Shown piece after piece: positions 1 through 64,000 of a stretch of 64,000 nt of DNA. The stretch spans positions 24,988,001 to 25,052,000 of the forward strand of contig OZ249436.1 of NCBI GenBank assembly GCA_965235115.1. Direction: 5' to 3'. Position 1 is the stretch's first letter; each line of letters begins with the position of its first letter. Origin of the DNA: Laetmonice hystrix (taxonomy: Eukaryota). The notes beneath the pieces were generated by a model. It ran no database searches and was not told where the DNA came from. It worked only from the letters and a program-made list of their open reading frames with translations. A program made the translations under genes and the position numbers.

Positions 1-84
1 TACAGGCCTAATGCGAAGCTCCCAGCCTAAAACGAGTTTCCAATTAATTTAAAGTTAACAAGATGCACTAATAATCGATTCCAA

Positions 85-96
85 GCCTAATTAGGC
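85..96. other. Perfect 12-bp palindrome GCCTAATTAGGC, once per unit
   Basis: Read directly; preceded by the 8-bp palindrome AATCGATT at 73-80. Confidence 0.85.
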
Positions 97-767
97 CATT
101 GCTAGTTGGATAACCAAATCTCATACAAAATACACCCTCCCGGCAGATGACCTGAGAATATTCAACTCTTATGTCCGATATATCCCTGTCCGCTTAGTAG
201 CACCCAGCCGGGCCCCCATTTTGACATTGCAACACCAATACAGCAAGTGCCCAGCTAACAGCACAAATAACAGGATTCAGGGCTTCCTACCACGTTACAA
301 GTCACAATAGATTGCTGCCTGTCGTAAAAATATACCAGACCATTTTAAAAAGTCACAGAACCCCAATCCGGCCCTAATATGTCACTCCCAGTACCAATAG
401 ACGCTGGAAGCACCATCAACTGAAATTCAGGCCTAGAACCCACCTCTCTCTACCAATATCATGCACCTAGTCCGTATACGAGGTTGTAATTTCCTTTAAT
501 CAACGGGCTGCGCCGCAGCAACCCACTCTGGTCTTTGCAATCTTTTTCAATATGCGTTAACATTTGTGACCAGCTCAACGCGCCTTGTAAAATTTTTCAA
601 AGTGCGTAAAAGTGTGTGTCCACCCCGACACGCTTTCCAAACCACTATACCCACCGAGCGACATCCACTCAAATACAGGCTTCGACCGATCCTCACTGTG
701 CCAATAATCCGCCACAAGGCAAATTCAGTCAATGCAAGCTGGAAAATCGAATGTCAAACCTAATGCT

Positions 768-775
768 CCCCCCCC
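768..775 (+). repeat. Length-variable poly-C tract (C8-C12), one per unit
   Basis: TAAT(G/A)CT-Cn-AGCACG: C8 in unit 1, C10 in units 2-3, C11 in unit 4, C12 in units 9, 33 and 36. Confidence 0.9.
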
Positions 776-867
776 AGCACGTTAACTGAAAAAAATCAAC
801 TAGCTTGAAAACTAGAATATAGCTTTGTTTAGCTAACAATCTACTCTCCCAGCGCCATCAACTCGCA

Positions 868-1753
868 TACAGGCGTAAAAGCAAACGCACTGCCCCATAT
901 AATGCTCCCAGCATAAAACGATGTTGCAATTAATTTAAAATTAACAAGATGCACTAGTAATCCGATCCAAGCTTAATTACGTCATTGCTAGTTTCATAAC
1001 CAAATCTCACAGAAAATACCCCACCCGGGCACATAACCTGAAAATATTCAACTTTTATCTCCAATGTATCCCTGTGCACCTAGTAGCACCCAAGCGGGCC
1101 CAATTTTGACATTCCAACACAAATACCGCAAATACCCGCCTAATGGCACAAAAAACTTTCTACCCCGTTGCAAGTCACATTAGCTTGCTGCTTGTCGTAA
1201 AAAATGGTGCAGACCATTTCTAAAGTCACAGTACCCCACTCCCGGCCTAATATTACGTTTCAGTATCCATATACGCTGCAAGCGGCAGGAACTCGAATAC
1301 AGGCCTAAAAGTAACCCCAGTCTAGCAATATCATACTCTCATGCCATATACGAGCTTGTAATTATCTTTAATTAATGGGCTCCGCAGCACCAACCCACTG
1401 CATTAACATTTGTTTAACAGCTTAACGCACCTTGTAAAAAAATTTTCAAGTGCGTAAAAATGCGTGTCCACCTCCACATACTTTAAAAATCACTATACCC
1501 ACCCAGCGACATTCACTCTAATACACGCCTAAGAGGAACTTCACTGTCCCATTTGATTCTCCAGCACGTATAGGATGTTTCAAGTAACATTTATCCACGG
1601 TCTGGCCCAATAACGTGCAACAAGGCATAGTAAGTCAATGCGAGCTCGCATGTCAAACCTAACCCGCCCCCCAGCACATGAGCTGAAAATATTCAAATAG
1701 CTTGAAAACTAGAATATAGCTTTGCTTAATACCATTATACCATCAACTCGCAT
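868..1753 (+). repeat. Subunit B (~886 bp) of the 1754-bp unit, diverged paralogue of subunit A
   Basis: Starts TACAGGCGTAA vs TACAGGCCTAA in A, with the same block order. Roughly 70-80% identical by eye, with several indels (B-only ~1552-1609; A-only ~527-552). Confidence 0.95.
1638..1651. other. Perfect 14-bp palindrome ATGCGAGCTCGCAT (contains a SacI site), once per unit except type-b-like units
   Basis: Read directly; broken to ATGCGACCTCGCAT in units 2, 9, 28, 29, 30 and 36. Confidence 0.9.
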
Positions 1754-4700
1754 TACAGGCCTAATGCGAAGCTCCCAGCCTAAAACGAGTTTCCAATTAA
1801 TTTAAAGTTAACAAGATGCACTAATAATCGATTCCAAGCCTAATTAGGCCATTGCTAGTTGGATAACCAAATCTCATACAAAATACACCCTCCCGGCAGA
1901 TGACCTGAGAATATTCAACTCTTATGTCCGATATATCCCTGTCCGCTTAGTAGCACCCAGCCGGGCCCCCATTTTGACATTGCAACACCAATACAGCAAG
2001 TGCCCAGCTAACAGCACAAATAACAGGATTCAGGGCTTCCTACCACGTTACAAGTCACAATAGATTGCTGCCTGTCGTAAAAATATACCAGACCATTTTA
2101 AAAAGTCACAGAACCCCAATCCGGCCCTAATATGTCACTCCCAGTACCAATACACGCTGGAAGCACCATCAACTGAAATTCAGGCCTAGAACCCACCTCT
2201 CTCTACCAATATCATGCACCTAGTCCGTATACGAGGTTGTAATTTACTTTAATCAACGGGCTGCGCCGCAGCAACCCACTCTGGTCTTTGCAATCTTTTT
2301 CAATATGCGTTAACATTTGTAACCAGCTCAACGCGCCTTGTAAAATTTTTCAAAGTGCGTAAAAGTGTGTGTCCATCCCGACACGCTTTCCAAACCACTA
2401 TACCCACCGAGCGACATCCACTCAAATACAGGCTTCGACCGATCCTCACTGTGCCAATAATCCGCCACAAGGCAAATTCAGTCAATGCAAGCTGGAAAAT
2501 CGAATGTCAAACCTAATGCTCCCCCCCCCCAGCACGTTAACTGAAAATAATCAACTAGCTTGAAAACTAGAATATAGCTTTGTTAAGCTAACAATCTACT
2601 CTCCCAGCGCCATCAACTCGCATACAGGCGTAAAAGCAAACGCACTGCCCCATATAATGCTTCCAGCCTAAAACGATGTTGCAATTAATTTAAAATTAAC
2701 AAGATGCACTAGTAATCCGATCCAAGCCTAATTACGTCATTGCTAGTTTCATAACCAAATCTCACAGAAAATACCCCACCCGCGCACATAACCTGAAAAT
2801 ATTCAACTTTTATCTCCAATGTATCCCTGTGCACCTAGTAGCACCCAAGCGGGCCCAATTTTGACATTCCAACACAAATACCGCAAATACCCGCCTAATG
2901 GCACAAAAAACTTTCTACCCCGTTGCAAGTCACATTAGCTTGCTGCTTGTCGTAAAAAATGGTGCAGACCATTTCTAAAGTCACAGTACCCCACTCCCGG
3001 CCTAATATTACGTTTCAGTATCCATATACGCTGCAAGCGGCAGGAACTCGAATACAGGCCTAAAAGTAACCCCAGTCTAGCAATATCATACTCTCATGCC
3101 ATATACGAGCTTGTAATTATCTTTAATTAATGGGCTCCGCAGCACCAACCCACTGCATTAACATTTGTTTAACAGCTTAACGCACCTTGTAAAAAATTTT
3201 CAAGTGCGTAAAAATGCGTGTCCACCTCCACATACTTTAAAAATCACTATACCCACCCAGCGACATTCACTCTAATACACGCCTAAGAGGAACTTCACTG
3301 TCCCATTTGATTCTCCAGCACGTATAGGATGTTTCAAGTAACATTTATCCACGGTCTGGCCCAATAACGTGCAACAAGGCATAGTAAGTCAATGCGACCT
3401 CGCATGTCAAACCTAACCCGCCCCCCAGCACATGAGCTGGAGATATTCAAATAGCTTGAAAACTAGAATATAGCTTTGCTTAATACCATTATACCATCAA
3501 CTCGCATTACAGGCCTAATGCGAAGCTCCCAGCCTAAAACGAGTTTCCAATTAATTTAAAGTTAACAAGATGCACTAATAATCGATTCCAAGCCTAATTA
3601 GGCCATTGCTAGTTGGATAACCAAATCTCATACAAAATACACCCTCCCGGCAGATGACCTGAGAATATTCAACTCTTATGTCCGATATATCCCTGTCCGC
3701 TTAGTAGCACCCAGCCGGGCCCCCATTTTGACATTGCAACACCAATACAGCAAGTGCCCAGCTAACAGCACAAATAACAGGATTCAGGGCTTCCTACCAC
3801 GTTACAAGTCACAATAGATTGCTGCCTGTCGTAAAAATATACCAGACCATTTTAAAAAGTCACAGAACCCCAATCCGGCCCTAATATGTCACTCCCAGTA
3901 CCAATAGACGCTGGAAGCACCATCAACTGAAATTCAGGCCTAGAACCCACCTCTCTCTACCAATATCATGCACCTAGTCCGTATACGAGGTTGTAATTTA
4001 CTTTAATCAACGGGCTGCGCCGCAGCAACCCACTCTGGTCTTTGCAATCTTTTTCAATATGCGTTAACATTTGTGACCAGCTCAACGCGCCTTGTAAAAT
4101 TTTTCAAAGTGCGTAAAAGTGTCTGTCCACCCCGACACGCTTTCCAAACCACTATACCCACCGAGCGACTTCCACTCAAATACAGGCTTCGACCGATCCT
4201 CACTGTGCCAATAATCCGCCACAAGGCAAATTCAGTCAATGCAAGCTGGAAAATCGAATGTCAAACCTAATGCTCCCCCCCCCCAGCACGTTAACTGAAA
4301 AAAATCAACTAGCTTGAAAACTAGAATATAGCTTTGTTTAGCTAACAATCTACTCTCCCAGCGCCATCAACTCGCATACAGGCGTAAAAGCAAACGCACT
4401 GCCCCATATAATGCTCCCAGCCTAAGACGATGTTGCAATTAATTTAAGATTAACAAGATGCACTAGTAATCCGATCCAAGCCTAATTACGTCATTGCTAG
4501 TTTCATAACCAAATCTCACAGAAAATACCCCACCCGCGCACATAACCTGAAAATATTTAACTTTTATCTCCAATGTATCCCTGTGCACCTAGTAGCACAC
4601 AAGCGGGCCCAATTTTGACATCCCAACACAAATACCGCAAATACCCGCCTAATGGCACAAAAAACTTTCTACCCCGTTGCAAGTCACATTAGCGTGCTGC

Positions 4701-7700
4701 TTGTCGTAAAAAATGGTGCAGACCATTTCTAAAGTCACAGTACCCCACTCCCGGCCTAATATTACGTTTCAGTATCCATATACGCTGCAAGCGGCAGGAA
4801 CTCGAATACAGGCCTAAAAGTAACCTCAGTCTAGCAATATCATACTCCCATGCCATATACGAGCTTGTAATTATCTTTAATTAATGGGCTCCGCAGCACC
4901 AACCCACTGCATTAACATTTGTTTAACAGCTTAACGCACCTTGTAAAATTTTTTCAAGTGCGTAAAAATGCGTGTCCACCTCCACATACTTTAAAAATCA
5001 CTATACCCACCCAGCGACATCCACTCTAATACACGCCTAAAAGGAACTTCACTGTCCCATTTGATTCTCCAGCACGTATAGGATGTTTCAAGTAACATTC
5101 ATCCACGGTCTGGCCCAATAACGTGCAGCAAGGCATAGTAAGTCAATGCGAGCTCGCATGTCAAACCTAACCCGCCCCCAAGCACATGAGCTGAAAATAT
5201 TCAAATAGCTTGAAAACTAGAATATAGCTTTGCTTAATACCATTATACCATCAACTCGCATTACAGGCCTAATGCGAAGCTCCCAGCCTAAAACGAGTTT
5301 CCAAATAATTTAAAGTTAACAAGATGCACTAATAATCGATTCCAAGCCTAATTAGGCCATTGCTAGTTGGATAACCAAATCTCATACAAAATACACCCTC
5401 CCGGCAGATGACCTGAGAATATTTAACTCTTATGTCCGATATATCCCTGTCTGCTTAGTAGCACCCAGCCGGGCCCCCATTTTGACATTGCAACACCAAT
5501 ACAGCAAGTGCCCAGCTAACAGCACAAATAACAGGATTCAGGGCTTCCTACCACGTTACAAGTCACAATAGATTGCTGCCTGTCGTAAAAATATACCAGA
5601 CCATTTTAAAAAGTCACAGAACCCCAATCCGGCCCTAATATGTCACTCCCAGTACCAATACACGCTGGAAGCACCATCAACTGAAATTCAGGCCTAGAAC
5701 CCACCTCTCTCTACCAATATCATGCACCTAGTCCGTATACGAGGTTGTAATTTACTTTAATCAACGGGCTGTGCCGCAGCAACCCACTCTGGTCTTTGCA
5801 ATCTTTTTCAATATGCGTTAACATTTGTAACCAGCTCAACGCGCCTTGTAAAATTTTTCAAAGTGCGTAAAGTGTGTGTCCACCCCGACACGCTTTCCAA
5901 ACCACTATACCCACCGAGCGACATCCACTCAAATACAGGCTTCGACCGATCCTCACTGTGCCAATAATCCGCCACAAGGCAAATTCAGTCAATGCAAGCT
6001 GGAAAATCGAATGTCAAACCTAATACTCCCCCCCCCCCAGCACGTTAACTGAAAATAATCAACTAGCTTGAAAACTAGAATATAGCTTTGTTTAGCTAAA
6101 AATATACTCTCCCAGCGCCATCAACTCGCATACAGGCGTAAAAGCAAACGCACTGCCCCATATAATGCTCCCAGCCTAAAACGATGTTGCAATTAATTTA
6201 AAATTAACAAGATGCACTAGTAATCCGATCCAAGCTTAATTACGTCATTGCTAGTTTCATAATCAAATCTCACAGAAAATACCCTTCCCGGGCAGATAAC
6301 CTGAAAATATTCAACTTTTATCTCCAATGTATCCCTGTGCACCTAGTAGCACACAAGCGGGCCCAATTTTGACATTCCAAGACAAAAACCGCAAATACCC
6401 GCCTAATGGCACAGAAAACTTTCTACCCCGTTGCAAGTCACATTAGCTTGCTGCTTGTCGTAAAAAATGGTGCAGACCATTTCTAAAGTCACAGTACCCC
6501 ACTCCCGGCCTAATATTACGTTTCAGTATCCATATACGCTGCAAGCGGCAGGAACTCGAATACAGGCCTAAAAGTAACCCCAGTCTAGCAATATCATACT
6601 CCCATGCCATATACGAGCTTGTAATTATCTTTAATTAATGGGCTCCGCAGCACCAACCCACTGCATTAACATTTGTTTAACAGCTTAACGCACCTTGTAA
6701 AATTTGTTCAAGTGCGTAAAAATGCGTGTCCACCTCCACATACTTTAAAAATCACTATACCCACCCAGCGACATCCACTCTAATACACGCCTAAAAGGAA
6801 CTTCACTGTCCCATTTGATTCTCCAGCACGTATAGGATGTTTCAAGTAACATTCATCCACGGTCTGGCCCAATAACGTGCAACAAGGCATAGTAAGTCAA
6901 TGCGAGCTCGCATGTCAAACCTAACCCGCCCCCAAGCACATGAGCTGAAAATATTCAAATAGCTTGAAAACTAGAATATAGCTTTGCTTAATACCATTAT
7001 ACCATCAACTCGCATTACAGGCCTAATGCGAAGCTCCCAGCCTAAAACGAGTTTCCAATTAATTTAAAGTTAACAAGATGCACTAATAATCGATTCCAAG
7101 CCTAATTAGGCCATTGCTAGTTGGATAACCAAATCTCATACAAAATACACCCTCCCGGCAGATGACCTGAGAATATTCAACTCTTATGTCCGATATATCC
7201 CTGTCCGCTTAGTAGCACCCAGCCGGGCCCCCATTTTGACATTGCAACACCAATACAGCAAGTGCCCAGCTAACAGCACAAATAACAGGATTCAGGGCTT
7301 CCTACCACGTTACAAGTCACAATAGATTGCTGCCTGTCGTAAAAATATACCAGACCATTTTAAAAAGTCACAGAACCCCAATCCGGCCCTAATATGTCAC
7401 TCCCAGTACCAATAGACGCTGGAAGCACCATCAACTGAAATTCAGGCCTAGAACCCACCTCTCTCTACCAATATCATGCACCTAGTCCGTATACGAGGTT
7501 GTAATTTACTTTAATCAACGGGCTGCGCCGCAGCAACCCACTCTGGTCTTTGCAATCTTTTTCAATATGCGTTAACATTTGTGACCAGCTCAACGCGCCT
7601 TGTAAAATTTTTCAAAGTGCGTAAAAGTGTCTGTCCACCCCGACACGCTTTCCAAACCACTATACCCACCGAGCGACATCCACTCAAATACAGGCTTCGA

Positions 7701-10700
7701 CCGATCCTCACTGTGCCAATAATCCGCCACAAGGCAAATTCAGTCAATGCAAGCTGGAAAATCGAATGTCAAACCTAATGCTCCCCCCCCCCAGCACGTT
7801 AACTGAAAAAAATCAACTAGCTTGAAAACTAGAATATAGCTTTGTTTAGCTAACAATCTACTCTCCCAGCGCCATCAACTCGCATACAGGCGTAAAAGCA
7901 AACGCACTGCCCCATATAATGCTCCCAGCCTAAGACGATGTTGCAATTAATTTAAGATTAACAAGATGCACTAGTAATCCGATCCAAGCCTAATTACGTC
8001 ATTGCTAGTTTCATAACCAAATCTCACAGAAAATACCCCACCCGCGCACATAACCTGAAAATATTTAACTTTTATCTCCAATGTATCCCTGTGCACCTAG
8101 TAGCACACAAGCGGGCCCAATTTTGACATCCCAACACAAATACCGCAAATACCCGCCTAATGGCACAAAAAACTTTCTACCCCGTTGCAAGTCACATTAG
8201 CGTGCTGCTTGTCGTAAAAAATGGTGCAGACCATTTCTAAAGTCACAGTACCCCACTCCCGGCCTAATATTACGTTTCAGTATCCATATACGCTGCAAGC
8301 GGCAGGAACTCGAATACAGGCCTAAAAGTAACCTCAGTCTAGCAATATCATACTCCCATGCCATATACGAGCTTGTAATTATCTTTAATTAATGGGCTCC
8401 GCAGCACCAACCCACTGCATTAACATTTGTTTAACAGCTTAACGCACCTTGTAAAATTTTTTCAAGTGCGTAAAAATGCGTGTCCACCTCCACATACTTT
8501 AAAAATCACTATACCCACCCAGCGACATCCACTCTAATACACGCCTAAAAGGAACTTCACTGTCCCATTTGATTCTCCAGCACGTATAGGATGTTTCAAG
8601 TAACATTCATCCACGGTCTGGCCCAATAACGTGCAGCAAGGCATAGTAAGTCAATGCGAGCTCGCATGTCAAACCTAACCCGCCCCCAAGCACATGAGCT
8701 GAAAATATTCAAATAGCTTGAAAACTAGAATATAGCTTTGCTTAATACCATTATACCATCAACTCGCATTACAGGCCTAATGCGAAGCTCCCAGCCTAAA
8801 ACGAGTTTCCAATTAATTTAAAGTTAACAAGATGCACTAATAATCGATTCCAAGCCTAATTAGGCCATTGCTAGTTGGATAACCAAATCTCATACAAAAT
8901 ACACCCTCCCGGCAGATGACCTGAGAATATTCAACTCTTATGTCCGATATATCCCTGTCCGCTTAGTAGCACCCAGCCGGGCCCCCATTTTGACATTGCA
9001 ACACCAATACAGCAAGTGCCCAGCTAACAGCACAAATAACAGGATTCAGGGCTTCCTACCACGTTACAAGTCACAATACATTGCTGCCTGTCGTAAAAAT
9101 ATACCAGACCATTTTAAAAAGTCACAGAACCCCAATCCGGCCCTAATATGTCACTCCCAGTACCAATACACGCTGGAAGCACCATCAACTGAAATTCAGG
9201 CCTAGAACCCACCTCTCTCTACCAATATCATGCACCTAGTCCGTATACGAGGTTGTAATTTACTTTAATCAACGGGCTGCGCCGCAGCAACCCACTCTGG
9301 TCTTTGCAATCTTTTTCAATATGCGTTAACATTTGTGACCAGCTCAACGCGCCTTGTAAAATTTTTCAAAGTGCGTAAAGGTGTGTGTCCACCCCGACAC
9401 GCTTTCCAAACCACTATACCCACCGAGCGACATCCACTCAAATACAGGCTTCGACCGATCCTCACTGTGCCAATAATCCGCCACAAGGCAAATTCAGTCA
9501 ATGCAAGCTGGAAAATCGAATGTCAAACCTAATGCTCCCCCCCCAGCACGTTAACTGAAAAAAATCAACTAGCTTGAAAACTAGAATATAGCTTTGTTTA
9601 GCTAACAATCTACTCTCCCAGCGCCATCAACTCGCATACAGGCGTAAAAGCAAACGCACTGCCCCATATAATGCTCCCAGCCTAAGACGATGTTGCAATT
9701 AATTTAAGATTAACAAGATGCACTAGTAATCCGATCCAAGCCTAATTACGTCATTGCTAGTTTCATAACCAAATCTCACAGAAAATACCCCACCCGCGCA
9801 CATAACCTGAAAATATTCAACTTTTATCTCCAATGTATCCCTGTGCACCTAGTAGCACCCAAGCGGGCCCAATTTTGACATTCCAACACAAATACCGCAA
9901 ATACCCGCCTAATGGCACAAAAAAACTTTCTACCCCGTTGCAAGTCACATTAGCTTGCTGCTTGTCGTAAAAAATGGTGCAGACCATTTCTAAAGTCACA
10001 GTACCCCACTCCCGGCCTAATATTACGTTTCAGTATCCATATACGCTGCAAGCGGCAGGAACTCGAATACAGGCCTAAAAGTAACCCCAGTCTAGCAATA
10101 TCATACTCTCATGCCATATACGAGCTTGTAATTATCTTTAATTAATGGGCTCCGCAGCACCAACCCACTGCATTAACATTTGTTTAACAGCTTGACGCAC
10201 CTTGTAAAAAATTTTCAAGTGCGTAAAAATGCGTGTCCACCTCCACATACTTTAAAAATCACTATACCCACCCAGCGACATTCACTCTAATACACGCCTA
10301 AGAGGAACTTCACTGTCCCATTTGATTCTCCAGCACGTATAGGATGTTTCAAGTAACATTCATCCACGGTCTGGCCCAATAACGTGCAACAAGGCATAGT
10401 AAGTCAATGCGAGCTCGCATGTCAAACCTAACCCGCCCCCCAGCACATGAGCTGAAAATATTCAAATAGCTTGAAAACTAGAATATAGCTTTGCTTAATA
10501 CCATTATACCATCAACTCGCATTACAGGCCTAATGCGAAGCTCCCAGCCTAAAACGAGTTTCCAATTAATTTAAAGTTAACAAGATGCACTAATAATCGA
10601 TTCCAAGCCTAATTAGGCCATTGCTAGTTGGATAACCAAATCTCATACAAAATACACCCTCCCGGCAGATGACCTGAGAATATTCAACTCTTATGTCCGA

Positions 10701-13700
10701 TATATCCCTGTCCGCTTTGTAGCACCCAGCCGGGCCCCCATTTTGACATTGCAACACCAATACAGCAAGTGCCCAGCTAACAGCACAAATAACAGGATTC
10801 AGGGCTTCCTACCACGTTACAAGTCACAATAGATTGCTGCCTGTCGTAAAAATATACCAGACCATTTTAAAAAGTCACAGAACCCCAATCCGGCCCTAAT
10901 ATGTCACTCCCAGTACCAATACACTCTGGAAGCACCATCAACTGAAATTCAGGCCTAGAACCCACCTCTCTCTACCAATATCATGCACCTAGTCCGTATA
11001 CGAGGTTGTAATTTACTTTAATCAACGGGCTGCGCCGCAGCAACCCACTCTGGTCTTTGCAATCTTTTTCAATATGCGTTAACATTTGTAACCAGCTCAA
11101 CGCGCCTTGTAAAATTTTTCAAAGTGCGTAAAAGTGTGTGTCCACCCCGACACGCTTTCCAAACCACTATACCCACCGAGCGACATCCACTCAAATACAG
11201 GCTTCGACCGATCCTCACTGTGCCAATAATCCGCCACAAGGCAAATTCAGTCAATGCAAGCTGGAAAATCGAATGTCAAACCTAATACTCCCCCCCCCAG
11301 CACGTTAACTGAAAATAATCAACTAGCTTGAAAACTAGAATATAGCTTTGTTTAGCTAACAATCTACTCTCCCAGCGCCATCAACTCGCATACAGGCGTA
11401 AAAGCAAACGCACTGCCCCATATAATGCTCCCAGCCTAAAACGATGTTGCAATTAATTTAAAATTAACAAGATGCACTAGTAATCCGATCCAAGCTTAAT
11501 TACGTCATTGCTAGTTTCATAACCAAATCTCACAGAAAATACCCCACCCGGGCACATAACCTGAAAATATTCAACTTTTATCTCCAATGTATCCCTGTGC
11601 ACCTAGTAGCACCCAAGCGGGCCCAATTTTGACATCCCAACACAAATACCGCAAATACCCGCCTAATGGCACAAAAAACTTTCTACCCCGTTGCAAGTCA
11701 CATTAGCGTGCTGCTTGTCGTAAAAAATGGTGCAGACCATTTCTAAAGTCACAGTACCCCACTCCCGGCCTAATATTACGTTTCAGTATCCATATACGCT
11801 GCAAGCGGCAGGAACTCGAATACAGGCCTAAAAGTAACCTCAGTCTAGCAATATCATACTCCCATGCCATATACGAGCTTGTAATTATCTTTAATTAATG
11901 GGCTCCGCAGCACCAACCCACTGCATTAACATTTGTTTAACAGCTTAACACACCTTGTAAAATTTTTTCAAGTGCGTAAAAATGCGTGTCCACCTCCACA
12001 TACTTTAAAAATCACTATACCCACCCAGCGACATCCACTCTAATACACGCCTAAAAGGAACTTCACTGTCCCATTTGATTCTCCAGCACGTATAGGATGT
12101 TTCAAGTAACATTCATCCACGGTCTGGCCCAATAACGTGCAACAAGGCATAGTAAGTCAATGCGAGCTCGCATGTCAAACCTAACCCGCCCCCAAGCACA
12201 TGAGCTGAAAATATTCAAATAGCTTGAAAACTAGAATATAGCTTTGCTTAATACCATTATACCATCAACTCGCATTACAGGCCTAATGCGAAGCTCCCAG
12301 CCTAAAACGAGTTTCCAATTAATTTAAAGTTAACAAGATGCACTAATAATCGATTCCAAGCCTAATTAGGCCATTGCTAGTTGGATAACCAAATCTCATA
12401 CAAAATACACCCTCCCGGCAGATGACCTGAGAATATTCAACTCTTATGTCCGATATATCCCTGTCCGCTTAGTAGCACCCAGCCGGGCCCCCATTTTGAC
12501 ATTGCAACACCAATACAGCAAGTGCCCAGCTAACAGCACAAATAACAGGATTCAGGGCTTCCTACCACGTTACAAGTCACAATAGATTGCTGCCTGTCGT
12601 AAAAATATACCAGACCATTTTAAAAAGTCACAGAACCCCAATCCGGCCCTAATATGTCACTCCCAGTACCAATAGACGCTGGAAGCACCATCAACTGAAA
12701 TTCAGGCCTAGAACCCACCTCTCTCTACCAATATCATGCACCTAGTCCGTATACGAGGTTGTAATTTCCTTTAATCAACGGGCTGCGCCGCAGCAACCCA
12801 CTCTGGTCTTTGCAATCTTTTTCAATATGCGTTAACATTTGTGACCAGCTCAACGCGCCTTGTAAAATTTTTCAAAGTGCGTAAAAGTGTGTGTCCACCC
12901 CGACACGCTTTCCAAACCACTATACCCACCGAGCGACATCCACTCAAATACAGGCTTCGACCGATCCTCACTGTGCCAATAATCCGCCACAAGGCAAATT
13001 CAGTCAATGCAAGCTGGAAAATCGAATGTCAAACCTAATGCTCCCCCCCCAGCACGTTAACTGAAAAAAATCAACTAGCTTGAAAACTAGAATATAGCTT
13101 TGTTTAGCTAACAATCTACTCTCCCAGCGCCATCAACTCGCATACAGGCGTAAAAGCAAACGCACTGCCCCATATAATGCTCCCAGCATAAAACGATGTT
13201 GCAATTAATTTAAAATTAACAAGATGCACTAGTAATCCGATCCAAGCTTAATTACGTCATTGCTAGTTTCATAACCAAATCTCACAGAAAATACCCCACC
13301 CGGGCACATAACCTGAAAATATTCAACTTTTATCTCCAATGTATCCCTGTGCACCTAGTAGCACCCAAGCGGGCCCAATTTTGACATTCCAACACAAATA
13401 CCGCAAATACCCGCCTAATGGCACAAAAAACTTTCTACCCCGTTGCAAGTCACATTAGCTTGCTGCTTGTCGTAAAAAATGGTGCAGACCATTTCTAAAG
13501 TCACAGTACCCCACTCCCGGCCTAATATTACGTTTCAGTATCCATATACGCTGCAAGCGGCAGGAACTCGAATACAGGCCTAAAAGTAACCCCAGTCTAG
13601 CAATATCATACTCTCATGCCATATACGAGCTTGTAATTATCTTTAATTAATGGGCTCCGCAGCACCAACCCACTGCATTAACATTTGTTTAACAGCTTAA

Positions 13701-16700
13701 CGCACCTTGTAAAAAAATTTTCAAGTGCGTAAAAATGCGTGTCCACCTCCACATACTTTAAAAATCACTATACCCACCCAGCGACATTCACTCTAATACA
13801 CGCCTAAGAGGAACTTCACTGTCCCATTTGATTCTCCAGCACGTATAGGATGTTTCAAGTAACATTTATCCACGGTCTGGCCCAATAACGTGCAACAAGG
13901 CATAGTAAGTCAATGCGAGCTCGCATGTCAAACCTAACCCGCCCCCCAGCACATGAGCTGAAAATATTCAAATAGCTTGAAAACTAGAATATAGCTTTGC
14001 TTAATACCATTATACCATCAACTCGCATTACAGGCCTAATGCGAAGCTCCCAGCCTAAAACGAGTTTCCAATTAATTTAAAGTTAACAAGATGCACTAAT
14101 AATCGATTCCAAGCCTAATTAGGCCATTGCTAGTTGGATAACCAAATCTCATACAAAATACACCCTCCCGGCAGATGACCTGAGAATATTCAACTCTTAT
14201 GTCCGATATATCCCTGTCCGCTTAGTAGCACCCAGCCGGGCCCCCATTTTGACATTGCAACACCAATACAGCAAGTGCCCAGCTAACAGCACAAATAACA
14301 GGATTCAGGGCTTCCTACCACGTTACAAGTCACAATAGATTGCTGCCTGTCGTAAAAATATACCAGACCATTTTAAAAAGTCACAGAACCCCAATCCGGC
14401 CCTAATATGTCACTCCCAGTACCAATACACGCTGGAAGCACCATCAACTGAAATTCAGGCCTAGAACCCACCTCTCTCTACCAATATCATGCACCTAGTC
14501 CGTATACGAGGTTGTAATTTACTTTAATCAACGGGCTGCGCCGCAGCAACCCACTCTGGTCTTTGCAATCTTTTTCAATATGCGTTAACATTTGTAACCA
14601 GCTCAACGCGCCTTGTAAAATTTTTCAAAGTGCGTAAAAGTGTGTGTCCATCCCGACACGCTTTCCAAACCACTATACCCACCGAGCGACATCCACTCAA
14701 ATACAGGCTTCGACCGATCCTCACTGTGCCAATAATCCGCCACAAGGCAAATTCAGTCAATGCAAGCTGGAAAATCGAATGTCAAACCTAATGCTCCCCC
14801 CCCCCCCAGCACGTTAACTGAAAATAATCAACTAGCTTGAAAACTAGAATATAGCTTTGTTAAGCTAACAATCTACTCTCCCAGCGCCATCAACTCGCAT
14901 ACAGGCGTAAAAGCAAACGCACTGCCCCATATAATGCTTCCAGCCTAAAACGATGTTGCAATTAATTTAAAATTAACAAGATGCACTAGTAATCCGATCC
15001 AAGCCTAATTACGTCATTGCTAGTTTCATAACCAAATCTCACAGAAAATACCCCACCCGCGCACATAACCTGAAAATATTCAACTTTTATCTCCAATGTA
15101 TCCCTGTGCACCTAGTAGCACCCAAGCGGGCCCAATTTTGACATTCCAACACAAATACCGCAAATACCCGCCTAATGGCACAAAAAACTTTCTACCCCGT
15201 TGCAAGTCACATTAGCTTGCTGCTTGTCGTAAAAAATGGTGCAGACCATTTCTAAAGTCACAGTACCCCACTCCCGGCCTAATATTACGTTTCAGTATCC
15301 ATATACGCTGCAAGCGGCAGGAACTCGAATACAGGCCTAAAAGTAACCCCAGTCTAGCAATATCATACTCTCATGCCATATACGAGCTTGTAATTATCTT
15401 TAATTAATGGGCTCCGCAGCACCAACCCACTGCATTAACATTTGTTTAACAGCTTAACGCACCTTGTAAAAAATTTTCAAGTGCGTAAAAATGCGTGTCC
15501 ACCTCCACATACTTTAAAAATCACTATACCCACCCAGCGACATTCACTCTAATACACGCCTAAGAGGAACTTCACTGTCCCATTTGATTCTCCAGCACGT
15601 ATAGGATGTTTCAAGTAACATTTATCCACGGTCTGGCCCAATAACGTGCAACAAGGCATAGTAAGTCAATGCGACCTCGCATGTCAAACCTAACCCGCCC
15701 CCCAGCACATGAGCTGGAGATATTCAAATAGCTTGAAAACTAGAATATAGCTTTGCTTAATACCATTATACCATCAACTCGCATTACAGGCCTAATGCGA
15801 AGCTCCCAGCCTAAAACGAGTTTCCAATTAATTTAAAGTTAACAAGATGCACTAATAATCGATTCCAAGCCTAATTAGGCCATTGCTAGTTGGATAACCA
15901 AATCTCATACAAAATACACCCTCCCGGCAGATGACCTGAGAATATTCAACTCTTATGTCCGATATATCCCTGTCCGCTTAGTAGCACCCAGCCGGGCCCC
16001 CATTTTGACATTGCAACACCAATACAGCAAGTGCCCAGCTAACAGCACAAATAACAGGATTCAGGGCTTCCTACCACGTTACAAGTCACAATAGATTGCT
16101 GCCTGTCGTAAAAATATACCAGACCATTTTAAAAAGTCACAGAACCCCAATCCGGCCCTAATATGTCACTCCCAGTACCAATAGACGCTGGAAGCACCAT
16201 CAACTGAAATTCAGGCCTAGAACCCACCTCTCTCTACCAATATCATGCACCTAGTCCGTATACGAGGTTGTAATTTACTTTAATCAACGGGCTGCGCCGC
16301 AGCAACCCACTCTGGTCTTTGCAATCTTTTTCAATATGCGTTAACATTTGTGACCAGCTCAACGCGCCTTGTAAAATTTTTCAAAGTGCGTAAAAGTGTC
16401 TGTCCACCCCGACACGCTTTCCAAACCACTATACCCACCGAGCGACATCCACTCAAATACAGGCTTCGACCGATCCTCACTGTGCCAATAATCCGCCACA
16501 AGGCAAATTCAGTCAATGCAAGCTGGAAAATCGAATGTCAAACCTAATGCTCCCCCCCCCAGCACGTTAACTGAAAAAAATCAACTAGCTTGAAAACTAG
16601 AATATAGCTTTGTTTAGCTAACAATCTACTCTCCCAGCGCCATCAACTCGCATACAGGCGTAAAAGCAAACGCACTGCCCCATATAATGCTCCCAGCCTA

Positions 16701-19290
16701 AGACGATGTTGCAATTAATTTAAGATTAACAAGATGCACTAGTAATCCGATCCAAGCCTAATTACGTCATTGCTAGTTTCATAACCAAATCTCACAGAAA
16801 ATACCCCACCCGCGCACATAACCTGAAAATATTTAACTTTTATCTCCAATGTATCCCTGTGCACCTAGTAGCACACAAGCGGGCCCAATTTTGACATCCC
16901 AACACAAATACCGCAAATACCCGCCTAATGGCACAAAAAACTTTCTACCCCGTTGCAAGTCACATTAGCGTGCTGCTTGTCGTAAAAAATGGTGCAGACC
17001 ATTTCTAAAGTCACAGTACCCCACTCCCGGCCTAATATTACGTTTCAGTATCCATATACGCTGCAAGCGGCAGGAACTCGAATACAGGCCTAAAAGTAAC
17101 CTCAGTCTAGCAATATCATACTCCCATGCCATATACGAGCTTGTAATTATCTTTAATTAATGGGCTCCGCAGCACCAACCCACTGCATTAACATTTGTTT
17201 AACAGCTTAACGCACCTTGTAAAATTTTTTCAAGTGCGTAAAAATGCGTGTCCACCTCCACATACTTTAAAAATCACTATACCCACCCAGCGACATCCAC
17301 TCTAATACACGCCTAAAAGGAACTTCACTGTCCCATTTGATTCTCCAGCACGTATAGGATGTTTCAAGTAACATTCATCCACGGTCTGGCCCAATAACGT
17401 GCAGCAAGGCATAGTAAGTCAATGCGAGCTCGCATGTCAAACCTAACCCGCCCCCAAGCACATGAGCTGAAAATATTCAAATAGCTTGAAAACTAGAATA
17501 TAGCTTTGCTTAATACCATTATACCATCAACTCGCATTACAGGCCTAATGCGAAGCTCCCAGCCTAAAACGAGTTTCCAAATAATTTAAAGTTAACAAGA
17601 TGCACTAATAATCGATTCCAAGCCTAATTAGGCCATTGCTAGTTGGATAACCAAATCTCATACAAAATACACCCTCCCGGCAGATGACCTGAGAATATTT
17701 AACTCTTATGTCCGATATATCCCTGTCTGCTTAGTAGCACCCAGCCGGGCCCCCATTTTGACATTGCAACACCAATACAGCAAGTGCCCAGCTAACAGCA
17801 CAAATAACAGGATTCAGGGCTTCCTACCACGTTACAAGTCACAATAGATTGCTGCCTGTCGTAAAAATATACCAGACCATTTTAAAAAGTCACAGAACCC
17901 CAATCCGGCCCTAATATGTCACTCCCAGTACCAATACACGCTGGAAGCACCATCAACTGAAATTCAGGCCTAGAACCCACCTCTCTCTACCAATATCATG
18001 CACCTAGTCCGTATACGAGGTTGTAATTTACTTTAATCAACGGGCTGTGCCGCAGCAACCCACTCTGGTCTTTGCAATCTTTTTCAATATGCGTTAACAT
18101 TTGTAACCAGCTCAACGCGCCTTGTAAAATTTTTCAAAGTGCGTAAAGTGTGTGTCCACCCCGACACGCTTTCCAAACCACTATACCCACCGAGCGACAT
18201 CCACTCAAATACAGGCTTCGACCGATCCTCACTGTGCCAATAATCCGCCACAAGGCAAATTCAGTCAATGCAAGCTGGAAAATCGAATGTCAAACCTAAT
18301 ACTCCCCCCCCCCAGCACGTTAACTGAAAATAATCAACTAGCTTGAAAACTAGAATATAGCTTTGTTTAGCTAAAAATATACTCTCCCAGCGCCATCAAC
18401 TCGCATACAGGCGTAAAAGCAAACGCACTGCCCCATATAATGCTCCCAGCCTAAAACGATGTTGCAATTAATTTAAAATTAACAAGATGCACTAGTAATC
18501 CGATCCAAGCTTAATTACGTCATTGCTAGTTTCATAATCAAATCTCACAGAAAATACCCTTCCCGGGCAGATAACCTGAAAATATTCAACTTTTATCTCC
18601 AATGTATCCCTGTGCACCTAGTAGCACACAAGCGGGCCCAATTTTGACATTCCAAGACAAAAACCGCAAATACCCGCCTAATGGCACAGAAAACTTTCTA
18701 CCCCGTTGCAAGTCACATTAGCTTGCTGCTTGTCGTAAAAAATGGTGCAGACCATTTCTAAAGTCACAGTACCCCACTCCCGGCCTAATATTACGTTTCA
18801 GTATCCATATACGCTGCAAGCGGCAGGAACTCGAATACAGGCCTAAAAGTAACCCCAGTCTAGCAATATCATACTCCCATGCCATATACGAGCTTGTAAT
18901 TATCTTTAATTAATGGGCTCCGCAGCACCAACCCACTGCATTAACATTTGTTTAACAGCTTAACGCACCTTGTAAAATTTGTTCAAGTGCGTAAAAATGC
19001 GTGTCCACCTCCACATACTTTAAAAATCACTATACCCACCCAGCGACATCCACTCTAATACACGCCTAAAAGGAACTTCACTGTCCCATTTGATTCTCCA
19101 GCACGTATAGGATGTTTCAAGTAACATTCATCCACGGTCTGGCCCAATAACGTGCAACAAGGCATAGTAAGTCAATGCGAGCTCGCATGTCAAACCTAAC
19201 CCGCCCCCAAGCACATGAGCTGAAAATATTCAAATAGCTTGAAAACTAGAATATAGCTTTGCTTAATACCATTATACCATCAACTCGCAT

Positions 19291-58800: not shown

Positions 58801-61800
58801 GATGTTGCAATTAATTTAAAATTAACAAGATGCACTAGTAATCCGATCCAAGCTTAATTACGTCATTGCTAGTTTCATAACCAAATCTCACAGAAAATAC
58901 CCCACCCGGGCACATAACCTGAAAATATTCAACTTTTATCTCCAATGTATCCCTGTGCACCTAGTAGCACCCAAGCGGGCCCAATTTTGACATTCCAACA
59001 CAAATACCGCAAATACCCGCCTAATGGCACAAAAAACTTTCTACCCCGTTGCAAGTCACATTAGCTTGCTGCTTGTCGTAAAAAATGGTGCAGACCATTT
59101 CTAAAGTCACAGTACCCCACTCCCGGCCTAATATTACGTTTCAGTATCCATATACGCTGCAAGCGGCAGGAACTCGAATACAGGCCTAAAAGTAACCTCA
59201 GTCTAGCAATATCATACTCCCATGCCATATACGAGCTTGTAATTATCTTTAATTAATGGGCTCCGCAGCACCAACCCACTGCATTAACATTTGTTTAACA
59301 GCTTAACACACCTTGTAAAATTTTTTCAAGAGCGTAAAAATGCGTGTCCACCTCCACATACTTTAAAAATCACTATACCCACCCAGCGACATCCACTCTA
59401 ATACACGCCTAAAAGGAACTTCACTGTCCCATTTGATTCTCCAGCACGTATAGGATGTTTCAAGTAACATTCATCCACGGTCTGGCCCAATAACGTGCAA
59501 CAAGGCATAGTAAGTCAATGCGAGCTCGCATGTCAAACCTAACCCGCCCCCAAGCACATGAGCTGAAAATATTCAAATAGCTTGAAAACTAGAATATAGC
59601 TTTGCTTAATACCATTATACCATCAACTCGCATTACAGGCCTAATGCGAAGCTCCCAGCCTAAAACGAGTTTCCAATTAATTTAAAGTTAACAAGATGCA
59701 CTAATAATCGATTCCAAGCCTAATTAGGCCATTGCTAGTTGGATAACCAAATCTCATACAAAATACACCCTCCCGGCAGATGACCTGAGAATATTCAACT
59801 CTTATGTCCGATATATCCCTGTCCGCTTAGTAGCACCCAGCCGGGCCCCCATTTTGACATTGCAACACCAATACAGCAAGTGCCCAGCTAACAGCACAAA
59901 TAACAGGATTCAGGGCTTCCTACCACGTTACAAGTCACAATAGATTGCTGCCTGTCGTAAAAATATACCAGACCATTTTAAAAAGTCACAGAACCCCAAT
60001 CCGGCCCTAATATGTCACTCCCAGTACCAATAGACGCTGGAAGCACCATCAACTGAAATTCAGGCCTAGAACCCACCTCTCTCTACCAATATCATGCACC
60101 TAGTCCGTATACGAGGTTGTAATTTCCTTTAATCAACGGGCTGCGCCGCAGCAACCCACTCTGGTCTTTGCAATCTTTTTCAATATGCGTTAACATTTGT
60201 GACCAGCTCAACGCGCCTTGTAAAATTTTTCAAAGTGCGTAAAAGTGTGTGTCCACCCCGACACGCTTTCCAAACCACTATACCCACCGAGCGACATCCA
60301 CTCAAATACAGGCTTCGACCGATCCTCACTGTGCCAATAATCCGCCACAAGGCAAATTCAGTCAATGCAAGCTGGAAAATCGAATGTCAAACCTAATGCT
60401 CCCCCCCCAGCACGTTAACTGAAAAAAATCAACTAGCTTGAAAACTAGAATATAGCTTTGTTTAGCTAACAATCTACTCTCCCAGCGCCATCAACTCGCA
60501 TACAGGCGTAAAAGCAAACGCACTGCCCCATATAATGCTCCCAGCCTAAAACGATGTTGCAATTAATTTAAAATTAACAAGATGCACTAGTAATCCGATC
60601 CAAGCTTAATTACGTCATTGCTAGTTTCATAACCAAATCTCACAGAAAATACCCCACCCGGGCACATAACCTGAAAATATTCAACTTTTATCTCCAATGT
60701 ATCCCTGTGCACCTAGTAGCACCCAAGCGGGCCCAATTTTGACATTCTAACACAAATACCGCAAATACCCGCCTAATGGCACAAAAAACTTTCTACCCCG
60801 TTGCAAGTCACATTAGCTTGCTGCTTGTCGTAAAAAATGGTGCAGACCATTTCTAAAGTCACAGTACCCCACTCCCGGCCTAATATTACGTTTCAGTATC
60901 CATATACGCTGCAAGCGGCAGGAACTCGAATACAGGCCTAAAAGTAACCCCAGTCTAGCAATATCATACTCTCATGCCATATACGAGCTTGTAATTATCT
61001 TTAATTAATGGGCTCCGCAGCACCAACCCACTGCATTAACATTTGTTTAACAGCTTAACGCACCTTGTAAAAAAATTTTCAAGTGCGTAAAAATGCGTGT
61101 CCACCTCCACATACTTTAAAAATCACTATACCCACCCAGCGACATTCACTCTAATACACGCCTAAGAGGAACTTCACTGTCCCATTTGATTCTCCAGCAC
61201 GTATAGGATGTTTCAAGTAACATTTATCCACGGTCTGGCCCAATAACGTGCAACAAGGCATAGTAAGTCAATGCGAGCTCGCATGTCAAACCTAACCCGC
61301 CCCCCAGCACATGAGCTGAAAATATTCAAATAGCTTGAAAACTAGAATATAGCTTTGCTTAATACCATTATACCATCAACTCGCATTACAGGCCTAATGC
61401 GAAGCTCCCAGCCTAAAACGAGTTTCCAATTAATTTAAAGTTAACAAGATGCACTAATAATCGATTCCAAGCCTAATTAGGCCATTGCTAGTTGGATAAC
61501 CAAATCTCATACAAAATACACCCTCCCGGCAGATGACCTGAGAATATTCAACTCTTATGTCCGATATATCCCTGTCCGCTTTGTAGCACCCAGCCGGGCC
61601 CCCATTTTGACATTGCAACACCAATACAGCAAGTGCCCAGCTAACAGCACAAATAACAGGATTCAGGGCTTCCTACCACGTTACAAGTCACAATAGATTG
61701 CTGCCTGTCGTAAAAATATACCAGACCATTTTAAAAAGTCACAGAACCCCAATCCGGCCCTAATATGTCACTCCCAGTACCAATACACGCTGGAAGCACC

Positions 61801-64000
61801 ATCAACTGAAATTCAGGCCTAGAACCCACCTCTCTCTACCAATATCATGCACCTAGTCCGTATACGAGGTTGTAATTTACTTTAATCAACGGGCTGCGCC
61901 GCAGCAACCCACTCTGGTCTTTGCAATCTTTTTCAATATGCGTTAACATTTGTAACCAGCTCAACGCGCCTTGTAAAATTTTTCAAAGTGCGTAAAAGTG
62001 TGTGTCCACCCCGACACGCTTTCCAAACCACTATACCCACCGAGCGACATCCACTCAAATACAGGCTTCGACCGATCCTCACTGTGCCAATAATCCGCCA
62101 CAAGGCAAATTCAGTCAATGCAAGCTGGAAAATCGAATGTCAAACCTAATGCTCCCCCCCCCCCCAGCACGTTAACTGAAAATAATCAACTAGCTTGAAA
62201 ACTAGAATATAGCTTTGTTAAGCTAACAATCTACTCTCCCAGCGCCATCAACTCGCATACAGGCGTAAAAGCAAACGCACTGCCCCATATAATGCTTCCA
62301 GCCTAAAACGATGTTGCAATTAATTTAAAATTAACAAGATGCACTAGTAATCCGATCCAAGCCTAATTACGTCATTGCTAGTTTCATAACCAAATCTCAC
62401 AGAAAATACCCCACCCGCGCACATAACCTGAAAATATTCAACTTTTATCTCCAATGTATCCCTGTGCACCTAGTAGCACCCAAGCGGGCCCAATTTTGAC
62501 ATTCCAACACAAATACCGCAAATACCCGCCTAATGGCACAAAAAACTTTCTACCCCGTTGCAAGTCACATTAGCTTGCTGCTTGTCGTAAAAAATGGTGC
62601 AGACCATTTCTAAAGTCACAGTACCCCACTCCCGGCCTAATATTACGTTTCAGTATCCATATACGCTGCAAGCGGCAGGAACTCGAATACAGGCCTAAAA
62701 GTAACCCCAGTCTAGCAATATCATACTCTCATGCCATATACGAGCTTGTAATTATCTTTAATTAATGGGCTCCGCAGCACCAACCCACTGCATTAACATT
62801 TGTTTAACAGCTTAACGCACCTTGTAAAAAATTTTCAAGTGCGTAAAAATGCGTGTCCACCTCCACATACTTTAAAAATCACTATACCCACCCAGCGACA
62901 TTCACTCTAATACACGCCTAAGAGGAACTTCACTGTCCCATTTGATTCTCCAGCACGTATAGGATGTTTCAAGTAACATTTATCCACGGTCTGGCCCAAT
63001 AACGTGCAACAAGGCATAGTAAGTCAATGCGACCTCGCATGTCAAACCTAACCCGCCCCCCAGCACATGAGCTGGAGATATTCAAATAGCTTGAAAACTA
63101 GAATATAGCTTTGCTTAATACCATTATACCATCAACTCGCATTACAGGCCTAATGCGAAGCTCCCAGCCTAAAACGAGTTTCCAATTAATTTAAAGTTAA
63201 CAAGATGCACTAATAATCGATTCCAAGCCTAATTAGGCCATTGCTAGTTGGATAACCAAATCTCATACAAAATACACCCTCCCGGCAGATGACCTGAGAA
63301 TATTCAACTCTTATGTCCGATATATCCCTGTCCGCTTAGTAGCACCCAGCCGGGCCCCCATTTTGACATTGCAACACCAATACAGCAAGTGCCCAGCTAA
63401 CAGCACAAATAACAGGATTCAGGGCTTCCTACCACGTTACAAGTCACAATAGATTGCTGCCTGTCGTAAAAATATACCAGACCATTTTAAAAAGTCACAG
63501 AACCCCAATCCGGCCCTAATATGTCACTCCCAGTACCAATACACGCTGGAAGCACCATCAACTGAAATTCAGGCCTAGAACCCACCTCTCTCTACCAATA
63601 TCATGCACCTAGTCCGTATACGAGGTTGTAATTTACTTTAATCAACGGGCTGCGCCGCAGCAACCCACTCTGGTCTTTGCAATCTTTTTCAATATGCGTT
63701 AACATTTGTGACCAGCTCAACGCGCCTTGTAAAATTTTTCAAAGTGCGTAAAAGTGTGTGTCCACCCCGACACGCTTTCCAAACCACTATACCCACCGAG
63801 CGACATCCACTCAAATACAGGCTTCGACCGATCCTCACTGTGCCAATAATCCGCCACAAGGCAAATTCAGTCAATGCAAGCTGGAAAATCGAATGTCAAA
63901 CCTAATGCTCCCCCCCCCAGCACGTTAACTGAAAATAATCAACTAGCTTGAAAACTAGAATATAGCTTTGTTAAGCTAACAATCTACTCTCCCAGCGCCA

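Follow-up and report, generated by a model that had tools for sequence, protein, structure and literature searches.

The 64,000-bp stretch of Laetmonice hystrix DNA analysed here (assembly GCA_965235115.1, contig OZ249436.1, positions 24,988,001 to 25,052,000 of the forward strand; hereafter the window, numbered from 1) is filled from end to end with copies of one 1754-bp repeat, which raises the questions of what this element is, how it was assembled and whether it may act at a centromere. The element is almost certainly a non-coding satellite that arose through nested duplications. It is a complex macrosatellite with heterogeneous higher-order repeats (HORs) which we have not seen described, and it belongs to a kind that is itself already known.

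The array and its 1754-bp unit

The array and the unit taken as reference are located as follows.

1..64000, plus strand: tandem satellite array of 36 full units and 858 bp of a 37th, continuing past both ends of the window
21045..22798, plus strand: reference unit (unit 13), 1754 bp, with 6 differences from the consensus and an A/T versus G/C composition that cycles about 180 times at a period of 9.74-9.8 bp

Units were cut at an anchor consisting of the first 24 bases, which occurs 37 times in the window, and the resulting 36 full units measure 1752-1757 bp (consensus 1754 bp), while the final 858 bp agree with the consensus start at 856 positions. One orientation is kept throughout, no 16-mer being common to the window and its reverse complement, only 2,413 distinct 12-mers occur in the 64 kb, and the composition is flat in all 32 bins (GC 0.426-0.439, GC skew -0.29 to -0.32). 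Two units differ on average at 20.0 positions (1.1%) and at most at 36; 70 of the 1760 alignment columns are variable, of which 59 are common to at least two units and 11 are singletons. Neither partial units nor insertions were found in any of the 36 units, in which length changes are limited to 1-3 bp. The sequence is thus a long head-to-tail array of similar units, as in a satellite, and an earlier note on this DNA had correctly described a single-orientation array of at least 64 kb with near-identical units and without insertions or genes. Tandem Repeats Finder, with periods up to 500, reported no array.

Several minor features recur along the array. The plus strand is strongly and constantly asymmetric over the window (C 28%, G 15%, A 32%, T 24%). 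Most of the variation in unit length, which may include sequencing error, stems from two poly-C runs that each unit carries at about positions 768-775 and 1672-1679. The first 390 bp of the unit (21045-21434; 22% of its length) carry only 5 of the 70 variable columns.

Layers within the unit and the helical-phase rhythm

The unit is a dimer of two diverged halves.

21045..21911, plus strand: half A, 867 bp, identical to half B at 657 of 802 aligned columns (81.9%)
21912..22798, plus strand: half B, 887 bp, with gaps relative to half A of 19, 12, 26, 58, 7, 4 and 12 bp and of single bases

With gaps counted, the identity of the halves is 70.5-71.2%. Further self-alignments within the unit were found at offsets of 196-255, 430-444 and 626-653 (64-75% identity), and the lags of 220, 252, 429 and 656 reach z scores of 4.7, 6.7, 5.2 and 8.1 against a family-wise null of 4.6; on the basis of these offsets and lag peaks, a monomer of ~220 bp was recognised. 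Eight blocks of 192-248 bp were delimited, with approximate boundaries set from a landmark motif, and each was compared with a profile built without that block and its partner, with shuffled sequences as the control. Six of the eight blocks are homologous to the monomer (10.2-57.2 bits; shuffle maxima at most 1.7), whereas the second block of each half (A2 and B2) gave no match in these leave-out profile tests.

21010..21228, plus strand: block A1, copy of the ancestral ~220-bp monomer (11.4 bits, shuffle maximum 0.1)
21229..21434, plus strand: block A2, no detectable monomer homology, 81% identical to B2
21435..21682, plus strand: block A3, monomer copy (40.1 bits), its 3' part with a 50-bp duplication and a palindrome
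21683..21878, plus strand: block A4, monomer copy (10.2 bits), with the 58-bp gap relative to B4
21879..22116, plus strand: block B1, monomer copy (57.2 bits)
22117..22308, plus strand: block B2, no detectable monomer homology, sharing the 9.8-bp phase of the adjacent blocks (cross-phase z 4.1)
22309..22531, plus strand: block B3, monomer copy (36.0 bits)
22532..22763, plus strand: block B4, monomer copy (39.3 bits)

An assignment of block 2 to the monomer was not supported by the profile or by global alignment (p 0.39, 0.11); hand inspection of the multiple alignment hints at a likeness, and the block may be a very diverged monomer copy.

The lowest level claimed in the earlier note, a motif of ~59 bp, was not borne out. 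At lags of 58, 59 and 60 bp the score is 9, below the family-wise 95% level of 14; the k-mer peaks at 58 and 60 (z 4.2 and 4.8) likewise fall short of the threshold of 5.4, and the sole significant short duplication in the unit is one local 50-bp copy. The impression of a 59-bp repeat probably stems from the recurrence of the hexamer GCCTAA, which occurs 9 times per unit versus 0.84 expected and whose spacings up to 130 bp (19, 58, 60, 60, 79 and 107 bp) all lie near multiples of 9.75. A telomere-repeat origin was considered for this hexamer and was not supported, since GCCTAA never occurs in tandem. The 50-bp duplication, at ~21579-21685, is old (40 of 57 bases alike) and five lattice turns long, with 26 bp missing in half B; it is overlapped by a 30-bp imperfect palindrome at 21622-21651.

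The five nested levels proposed earlier are therefore retained in part. The ~870-bp subunit and the 1754-bp dimer are confirmed by halves of 867 and 887 bp that are 82% identical, and the ~200-250-bp block is recovered from the lag peaks and from six of the eight blocks, but not from the second block of each half; the 59-bp level is lost, and the levels above the unit, discussed below, are only local duplications. The proposal that old, diverged subunits lie within a young and homogeneous higher-order unit was upheld, as the halves are 82% and the monomers ~60-70% identical, compared with a difference of 1.1% between units. From these layers of divergence, the following history may be proposed. 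A ~220-bp monomer would have diverged to about 60-70% identity, and three copies of it together with one unrelated or unrecognisably diverged block would have formed a unit of ~880 bp. This unit would then have doubled, with divergence of the two halves to 82%, and the 1754-bp dimer would have become the unit of homogenisation.

Beneath these levels, the A/T versus G/C composition oscillates at 9.74-9.8 bp in a phase-coherent manner over ~180 turns per unit, and this ~9.8-bp periodicity is a real bottom layer that is absent from the levels listed earlier. WW (A/T-only) dinucleotides at 9.75 bp give z 6.6-7.1, a value reached by none of 400 shuffles that preserve dinucleotides or tetranucleotides; the periodicity is significant in each half alone and remains after removal of the 50-bp duplication. 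The autocorrelation of base identity at 9.8 bp (z 8.1 versus a null maximum of 5.0) persists at lags of 150-200 bp, and in Fourier analysis the strongest peak for A+T, for A, C and G and for their sum, but not for T, falls on harmonic 180 of the unit. Since copies of one monomer are not independent, a nested null was constructed in which random monomers were duplicated in the same nesting; the observed z of 8.3 was reached at any period by 2 of 4500 such simulated repeats, at 9.5-10.6 bp by none, and by 0 of 142 natural 1754-bp control pieces. At a period chosen after the fact, block B2 keeps step with the flanking blocks (z 4.1), and A2 gives z 1.8. A2 and B2 also show the strongest ~10-bp periodicity of the eight blocks (p 0.037 and 0.007, uncorrected).

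Turnover, family and likeness to known satellites

Above the unit, clustering of variants, with the poly-C runs excluded, resolved 8-10 haplotypes, which follow one another in the order ABCDCEFABCDCEGGCEGGDCDCDCEHBIICEFJAB. Three repeated segments stand out.

1..22798, plus strand: local duplication at a lag of 7 units (12.3 kb), ABCDCE-F-ABCDCE, units 1-6 (1-10522) resembling units 8-13 (12276-22798) with 9 differences in 10.5 kb
19291..33326, plus strand: local duplication at a lag of 4 units (7.0 kb), CEGG twice, units 12-15 versus 16-19 with 11 differences in 7.0 kb
33327..43849, plus strand: local triplication at a lag of 2 units (3.5 kb), DC three times, with 2 and 4 differences in 3.5 kb

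Units 20-21 and 22-23 differ at 2 positions in 3.5 kb. Matched runs of at least three units number 8 versus 0.62 expected under permutation, the longest of them (p 0.0015) spanning 6 units at lag 7. The mean distance between units is not significantly reduced at any of 18 unit lags (best p 0.075), and the HORs of 3.5, 7.0 and 12.3 kb reported earlier are therefore duplications of local extent, comprising 2, 4 and 7 units, and no array-wide levels. Exchange of tracts between units is evident from the four-gamete test, which was failed by 203 of 1485 site pairs; the failing proportion is 5% for sites less than 300 bp apart and climbs to 28% for those separated by 900-1500 bp, the farthest distance bin holds no conflict among 11 pairs, and at least 5 exchange intervals are required overall. 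Five groups of identical units testify to recent copying and turnover, not to net growth, and the earlier term "actively expanding" goes beyond this. As a mechanism suggested by these footprints, homology-directed repair may add or remove whole units in blocks of 1-7, and tract swaps between neighbouring units could generate the recurring haplotypes, mosaic units and heterogeneous HORs.

The repeat is not confined to this window. Part of it occurs in seven of the ten sequencing runs listed. These seven come from four studies: three are from a single sample of organism A, three are marine metagenomes and one is from organism B; no RNA run is among them. The contigs of four of the ten runs (X1, X3, X5 and X6) were aligned to one unit, the low shares of X7-X10 being set aside, and the head-to-tail joint was found in all four. 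In X1, from organism A, 5101 contigs fall on the unit, 815 of them at 99% identity or above, 1016 at 95-99%, 2120 at 90-95% and 1150 below 90%, that is, 3270 of 5101 below 95%. Only 1% of the X1 contigs continue into unlike sequence. Their summed depth, which is not equivalent to copy number, ranges from 77,914 to 1,856,927 per bin, with rare-variant contigs at a depth of 17-72; the genomic copies may number in the thousands. Several joints connect homologous positions of different blocks (22354 to 21943 or 21062; 22657 to 21099; register judged by eye), which suggests a large family whose members may combine the same modules in different versions or in a different order. The highest summed depth in X1 lies at 21104-21221, the part most shared with relatives. 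X3, X5 and X6 yielded 19-56 contigs each at low depth, some of them near-identical. Near-identical pieces occur in X5, from organism B, at a depth of 2-5 and are more likely to be carried-over DNA (prey, epibiont or contamination) than a satellite of organism B itself.

An exact 27-base motif common to both halves had no match in metagenome (JGI), viral or prokaryote genome contigs, and a distant blastn search of a phage collection gave no match. A 16-base motif was found at 116 or more metagenome loci, and those listed were all chance matches (best alignment 33 bases). The observed/expected ratio of CpG is 0.83, and 3 of 30 transitions among the variants lie in a CpG context versus 16% expected; this lack of CpG depletion or decay fits a non-vertebrate host.

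The earlier note did not recognise the family, and no description of it was found in the literature searched, which largely excluded subscription papers and did not extend to nt, Dfam or Repbase; the same literature contained no paper on these exact unit lengths and none on a polychaete satellite. A preprint atlas of centromeres lists 263 candidate centromeric families, of which 103 have units of 201 bp to 5 kb, and reports that regimented and heterogeneous HORs are both common and that homology is lost in the course of tens of millions of years (10.64898/2026.09.17.752431); its Supplementary Table 2, with the 263 families, could list this family or a relative. CENH3-bound satellites of Fabeae have units of up to 2,979 bp (PMC7403623). 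In view of the atlas size range and the fast decay of homology, neither the unit length nor the missing match is therefore surprising, and the earlier wording "unusually long unit" was overstated. Species-restricted satellite families turn over fast, and an unrecognised one is to be expected. The unit offers a clean test case: it preserves four layers of its own repeat history, its 9.8-bp periodicity is both strong and measurable, and the large family to which it belongs includes relatives of different arrangement.

The closest likeness in organisation was sought among well-described satellites. In primate alpha-satellite HORs, as here, old diverged monomers are embedded in a young, ~99% identical multimer (PMC5615363; 10.64898/2026.09.17.752431), and the 8-block unit of 1.75 kb lies within the alpha HOR size range. 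In contrast, the monomers here are irregular (192-248 bp) and more diverged, with two of eight unrecognisable; there is an extra dimer layer, an unregimented upper level, no CENP-B-box-like match and a GC content of 43%, and the likeness is architectural, implying no sequence relationship. In a regimented HOR, one period runs along the array and monomers of one family run through the whole HOR; here such a period exists at 1754 bp but not at 3.5, 7.0 or 12.3 kb (18 lags), and only six of the eight blocks belong to one family. The alpha-satellite comparison made earlier thus applies to the old monomers in a young multimer, whereas the top level is heterogeneous, of the Arabidopsis type. Like this array, Arabidopsis CEN178 arrays are homogenised, single-orientation arrays with local block duplications and no long-range period (10.64898/2026.09.17.752431). 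Mutation in Arabidopsis centromeres is reported to proceed through whole-unit indels, mosaic units and non-allelic conversion, and the whole-unit indels, the mosaic units and a weak transition bias are shared with the present array (10.1101/2025.06.02.657473). On the other hand, homogenisation here acts on a unit of 1754 bp that is a fossil HOR in its own right, compared with 178 bp in Arabidopsis; the 64 kb are free of retrotransposon insertions, and a CENH3/CENP-A link is a candidate only.

Long units built from diverged subunits (TBREV, 1061 bp; MAD2, 704 bp; TAUD2), and related families of one genome that reuse subunits, are also reported in Tribolium, where units of 63-82% similar subunits are known and the 340-bp TfSat03 consists of three subunits of 66-73% (10.1101/2024.12.02.626372). 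The long Tribolium units contain inverted subunits and mostly exceed 60% A+T, whereas all subunits here are direct and A+T is 57%. That kilobase units can be centromeric is shown by long satellites bound by CENH3 in Fabeae (33-2,979 bp) and by those of potato, but the potato units derive from retrotransposon fragments (PMC7403623) and the present unit mostly from internal duplication.

Centromeric or other origins

A (peri)centromeric location of the satellite is probable, and the array could also be, with a chance somewhat short of even, a CENP-A-bearing core. Abundance, purity, architecture, the pattern of turnover and the 10-bp periodicity fit a centromeric role, which is undecidable from sequence. 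Two centromere-associated though not diagnostic features are present, namely HOR blocks of recent homogenisation and ~10-bp WW periodicity; the latter is reported from many satellites, including centromeric ones (PMC8997354; PMC5844345), and bovid SAT1.723, a GC-rich centromeric satellite, shows a ~10-bp GC periodicity (PMC6475130). The function of the array may be structural, in chromatin, where the ~9.8-bp pattern could set the rotation of nucleosomes, about eight of which would fit on each unit.

Several observations weigh against this reading, in addition to the caution on depth noted above. The period of nucleosomal DNA is ~10.0-10.4 bp, and that of 9.74-9.8 bp found here is shorter. Among the young variants that change base class, 23 of 40 hit in-phase bases versus a background of 57%, which gives no sign of selection, and the gaps between halves A and B fit the lattice in part only (19 and 58 do; 26, 12, 7 and 4 do not). 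Short dyad symmetries are not enriched (22 versus 26.9 and 8 versus 6.6 in shuffles), and no CENP-B-box-like site is better than two mismatches. None of the observed features is specific to centromeres, and in Fabeae one and the same satellite family may be centromeric in one case and not in another (PMC7403623).

A possible, though doubtful, alternative is that the element forms heterochromatin outside the centromere, as a subtelomeric, knob-like or interstitial macrosatellite. Its nesting and turnover would then reflect neutral unequal exchange, and its 9.8-bp rhythm would be what survives of an ancestral ~10-bp simple repeat after slight shortening through deletions. The period is common to all four bases, whose 10-state profile is strand-asymmetric, as expected of a decayed short repeat, and the absence of a current sign of selection on phase and of dyad enrichment agrees with this alternative as well. 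Kilobase macrosatellites are also located away from centromeres (PMC8122249; PMC10153287): long satellites such as Tribolium TfSat02 (1106 bp) are often far from them (10.1101/2024.12.02.626372), and human megabase non-alpha arrays have units of 1.8-6.1 kb (PMC10153287). However, the element is very abundant and has a large family of diverged relatives, as is typical of the major satellite of a genome, and its phase persists at lags as long as 200 bp and through a block that lacks monomer homology. The lattice could be either selected or the fossil of a ~10-bp ancestor.

The most far-reaching form of the centromeric reading is unlikely on present evidence. It would hold that the element is functional centromeric DNA of an annelid, conserved in helical phase and not in sequence, whose lattice of ~180 turns was kept through monomer divergence, large indels and the capture of an unrelated block, locking CENP-A nucleosomes in one rotational setting, with chromosomes carrying different arrangements of ~220-bp modules. 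No described annelid centromeric satellite was found in the literature searched, and the telomere-to-telomere (T2T) earthworm paper names centromere counts, with no repeat sequence in the part consulted (PMC12130307). If CENP-A binds, the array would provide a centromere sequence for a little-studied group of marine invertebrates and a direct test of whether selection on satellites acts on helical phasing instead of sequence, through indel lengths and the phase of substitutions across the family.

It is very improbable that the array goes back to a fragment of a transposon, or that its unit is a tandemly repeated non-coding RNA gene or ribosomal DNA (rDNA) spacer. Kilobase tandem units often arise from pieces of retrotransposons (10.64898/2026.09.17.752431; PMC7403623), and block 2, without monomer homology, could be a captured fragment; on the other hand, the internal monomer explains about three quarters of the unit, and searches for coding and RNA content were negative. 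As in other satellites, the sequence is non-coding: the longest stop-to-stop frame in positions 1-3600 has 87 aa, 16 frames reach at least 50 aa, and none of the eight distinct frames, one copy each, matched Pfam (E 0.1). Rfam gave no match at E up to 1 on 3.6 kb and none at the gathering score on the 64 kb, a search that undescribed RNAs would escape, and ARAGORN found no tRNA gene. A folding signal was not seen on the two strands tested (half A plus, z -1.21; half B minus, z 0.12), and long inverted repeats are absent, the longest inverted pair being 30 nt at 80%. A conserved protein-binding island between the halves was not supported either, as the longest identical run is 27 and 27 is expected, and no rRNA gene lies between the 36 units.

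One named satellite was compared as well. The common cetacean satellite resembles the present element in its marine source and in a unit length of ~1.75 kb, and it has a long dyad. It is LINE-1-derived (PMC6947457), with a unit of over 1 kb (PMC5615363). It was ruled out by the lack of a long dyad here (30 nt at 80%), by the lack of CpG depletion or decay, by the internal direct nesting and by host runs that amount to only 0.5-0.6 billion contig letters.

An assembly artefact, that is, a collapsed or over-expanded repeat with an unreal order of units, is scarcely credible. The supporting sequence consists of contigs, not raw long reads, and poly-C runs contribute some of the variation. Yet the head-to-tail joint, like near-identical pieces with 0-4 differences over 150-413 bp, turns up in data from four studies, although one run may be the source sample and hence not independent, and 59 of the 70 variable columns are common to two or more units in linked haplotypes.

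A last observation concerns the spectrum of substitutions. C-G transversions are the commonest difference between halves A and B (35 of 92 transversions versus 17% expected, p 1.5e-6), and such changes make up 24 of 50 among the family variants in run X1 and 9 of 30 among the young variants of the window (p 0.06), with no sequence context standing out. An apparent excess of class-preserving transversions (55 of 92), considered as a possible trace of selection on the lattice, is caused by C-G changes alone; A-T changes are not raised. The C-G excess may be a mutational signature of repair synthesis; in human duplications, an excess of transversions is tied to interlocus conversion (PMC13102968).

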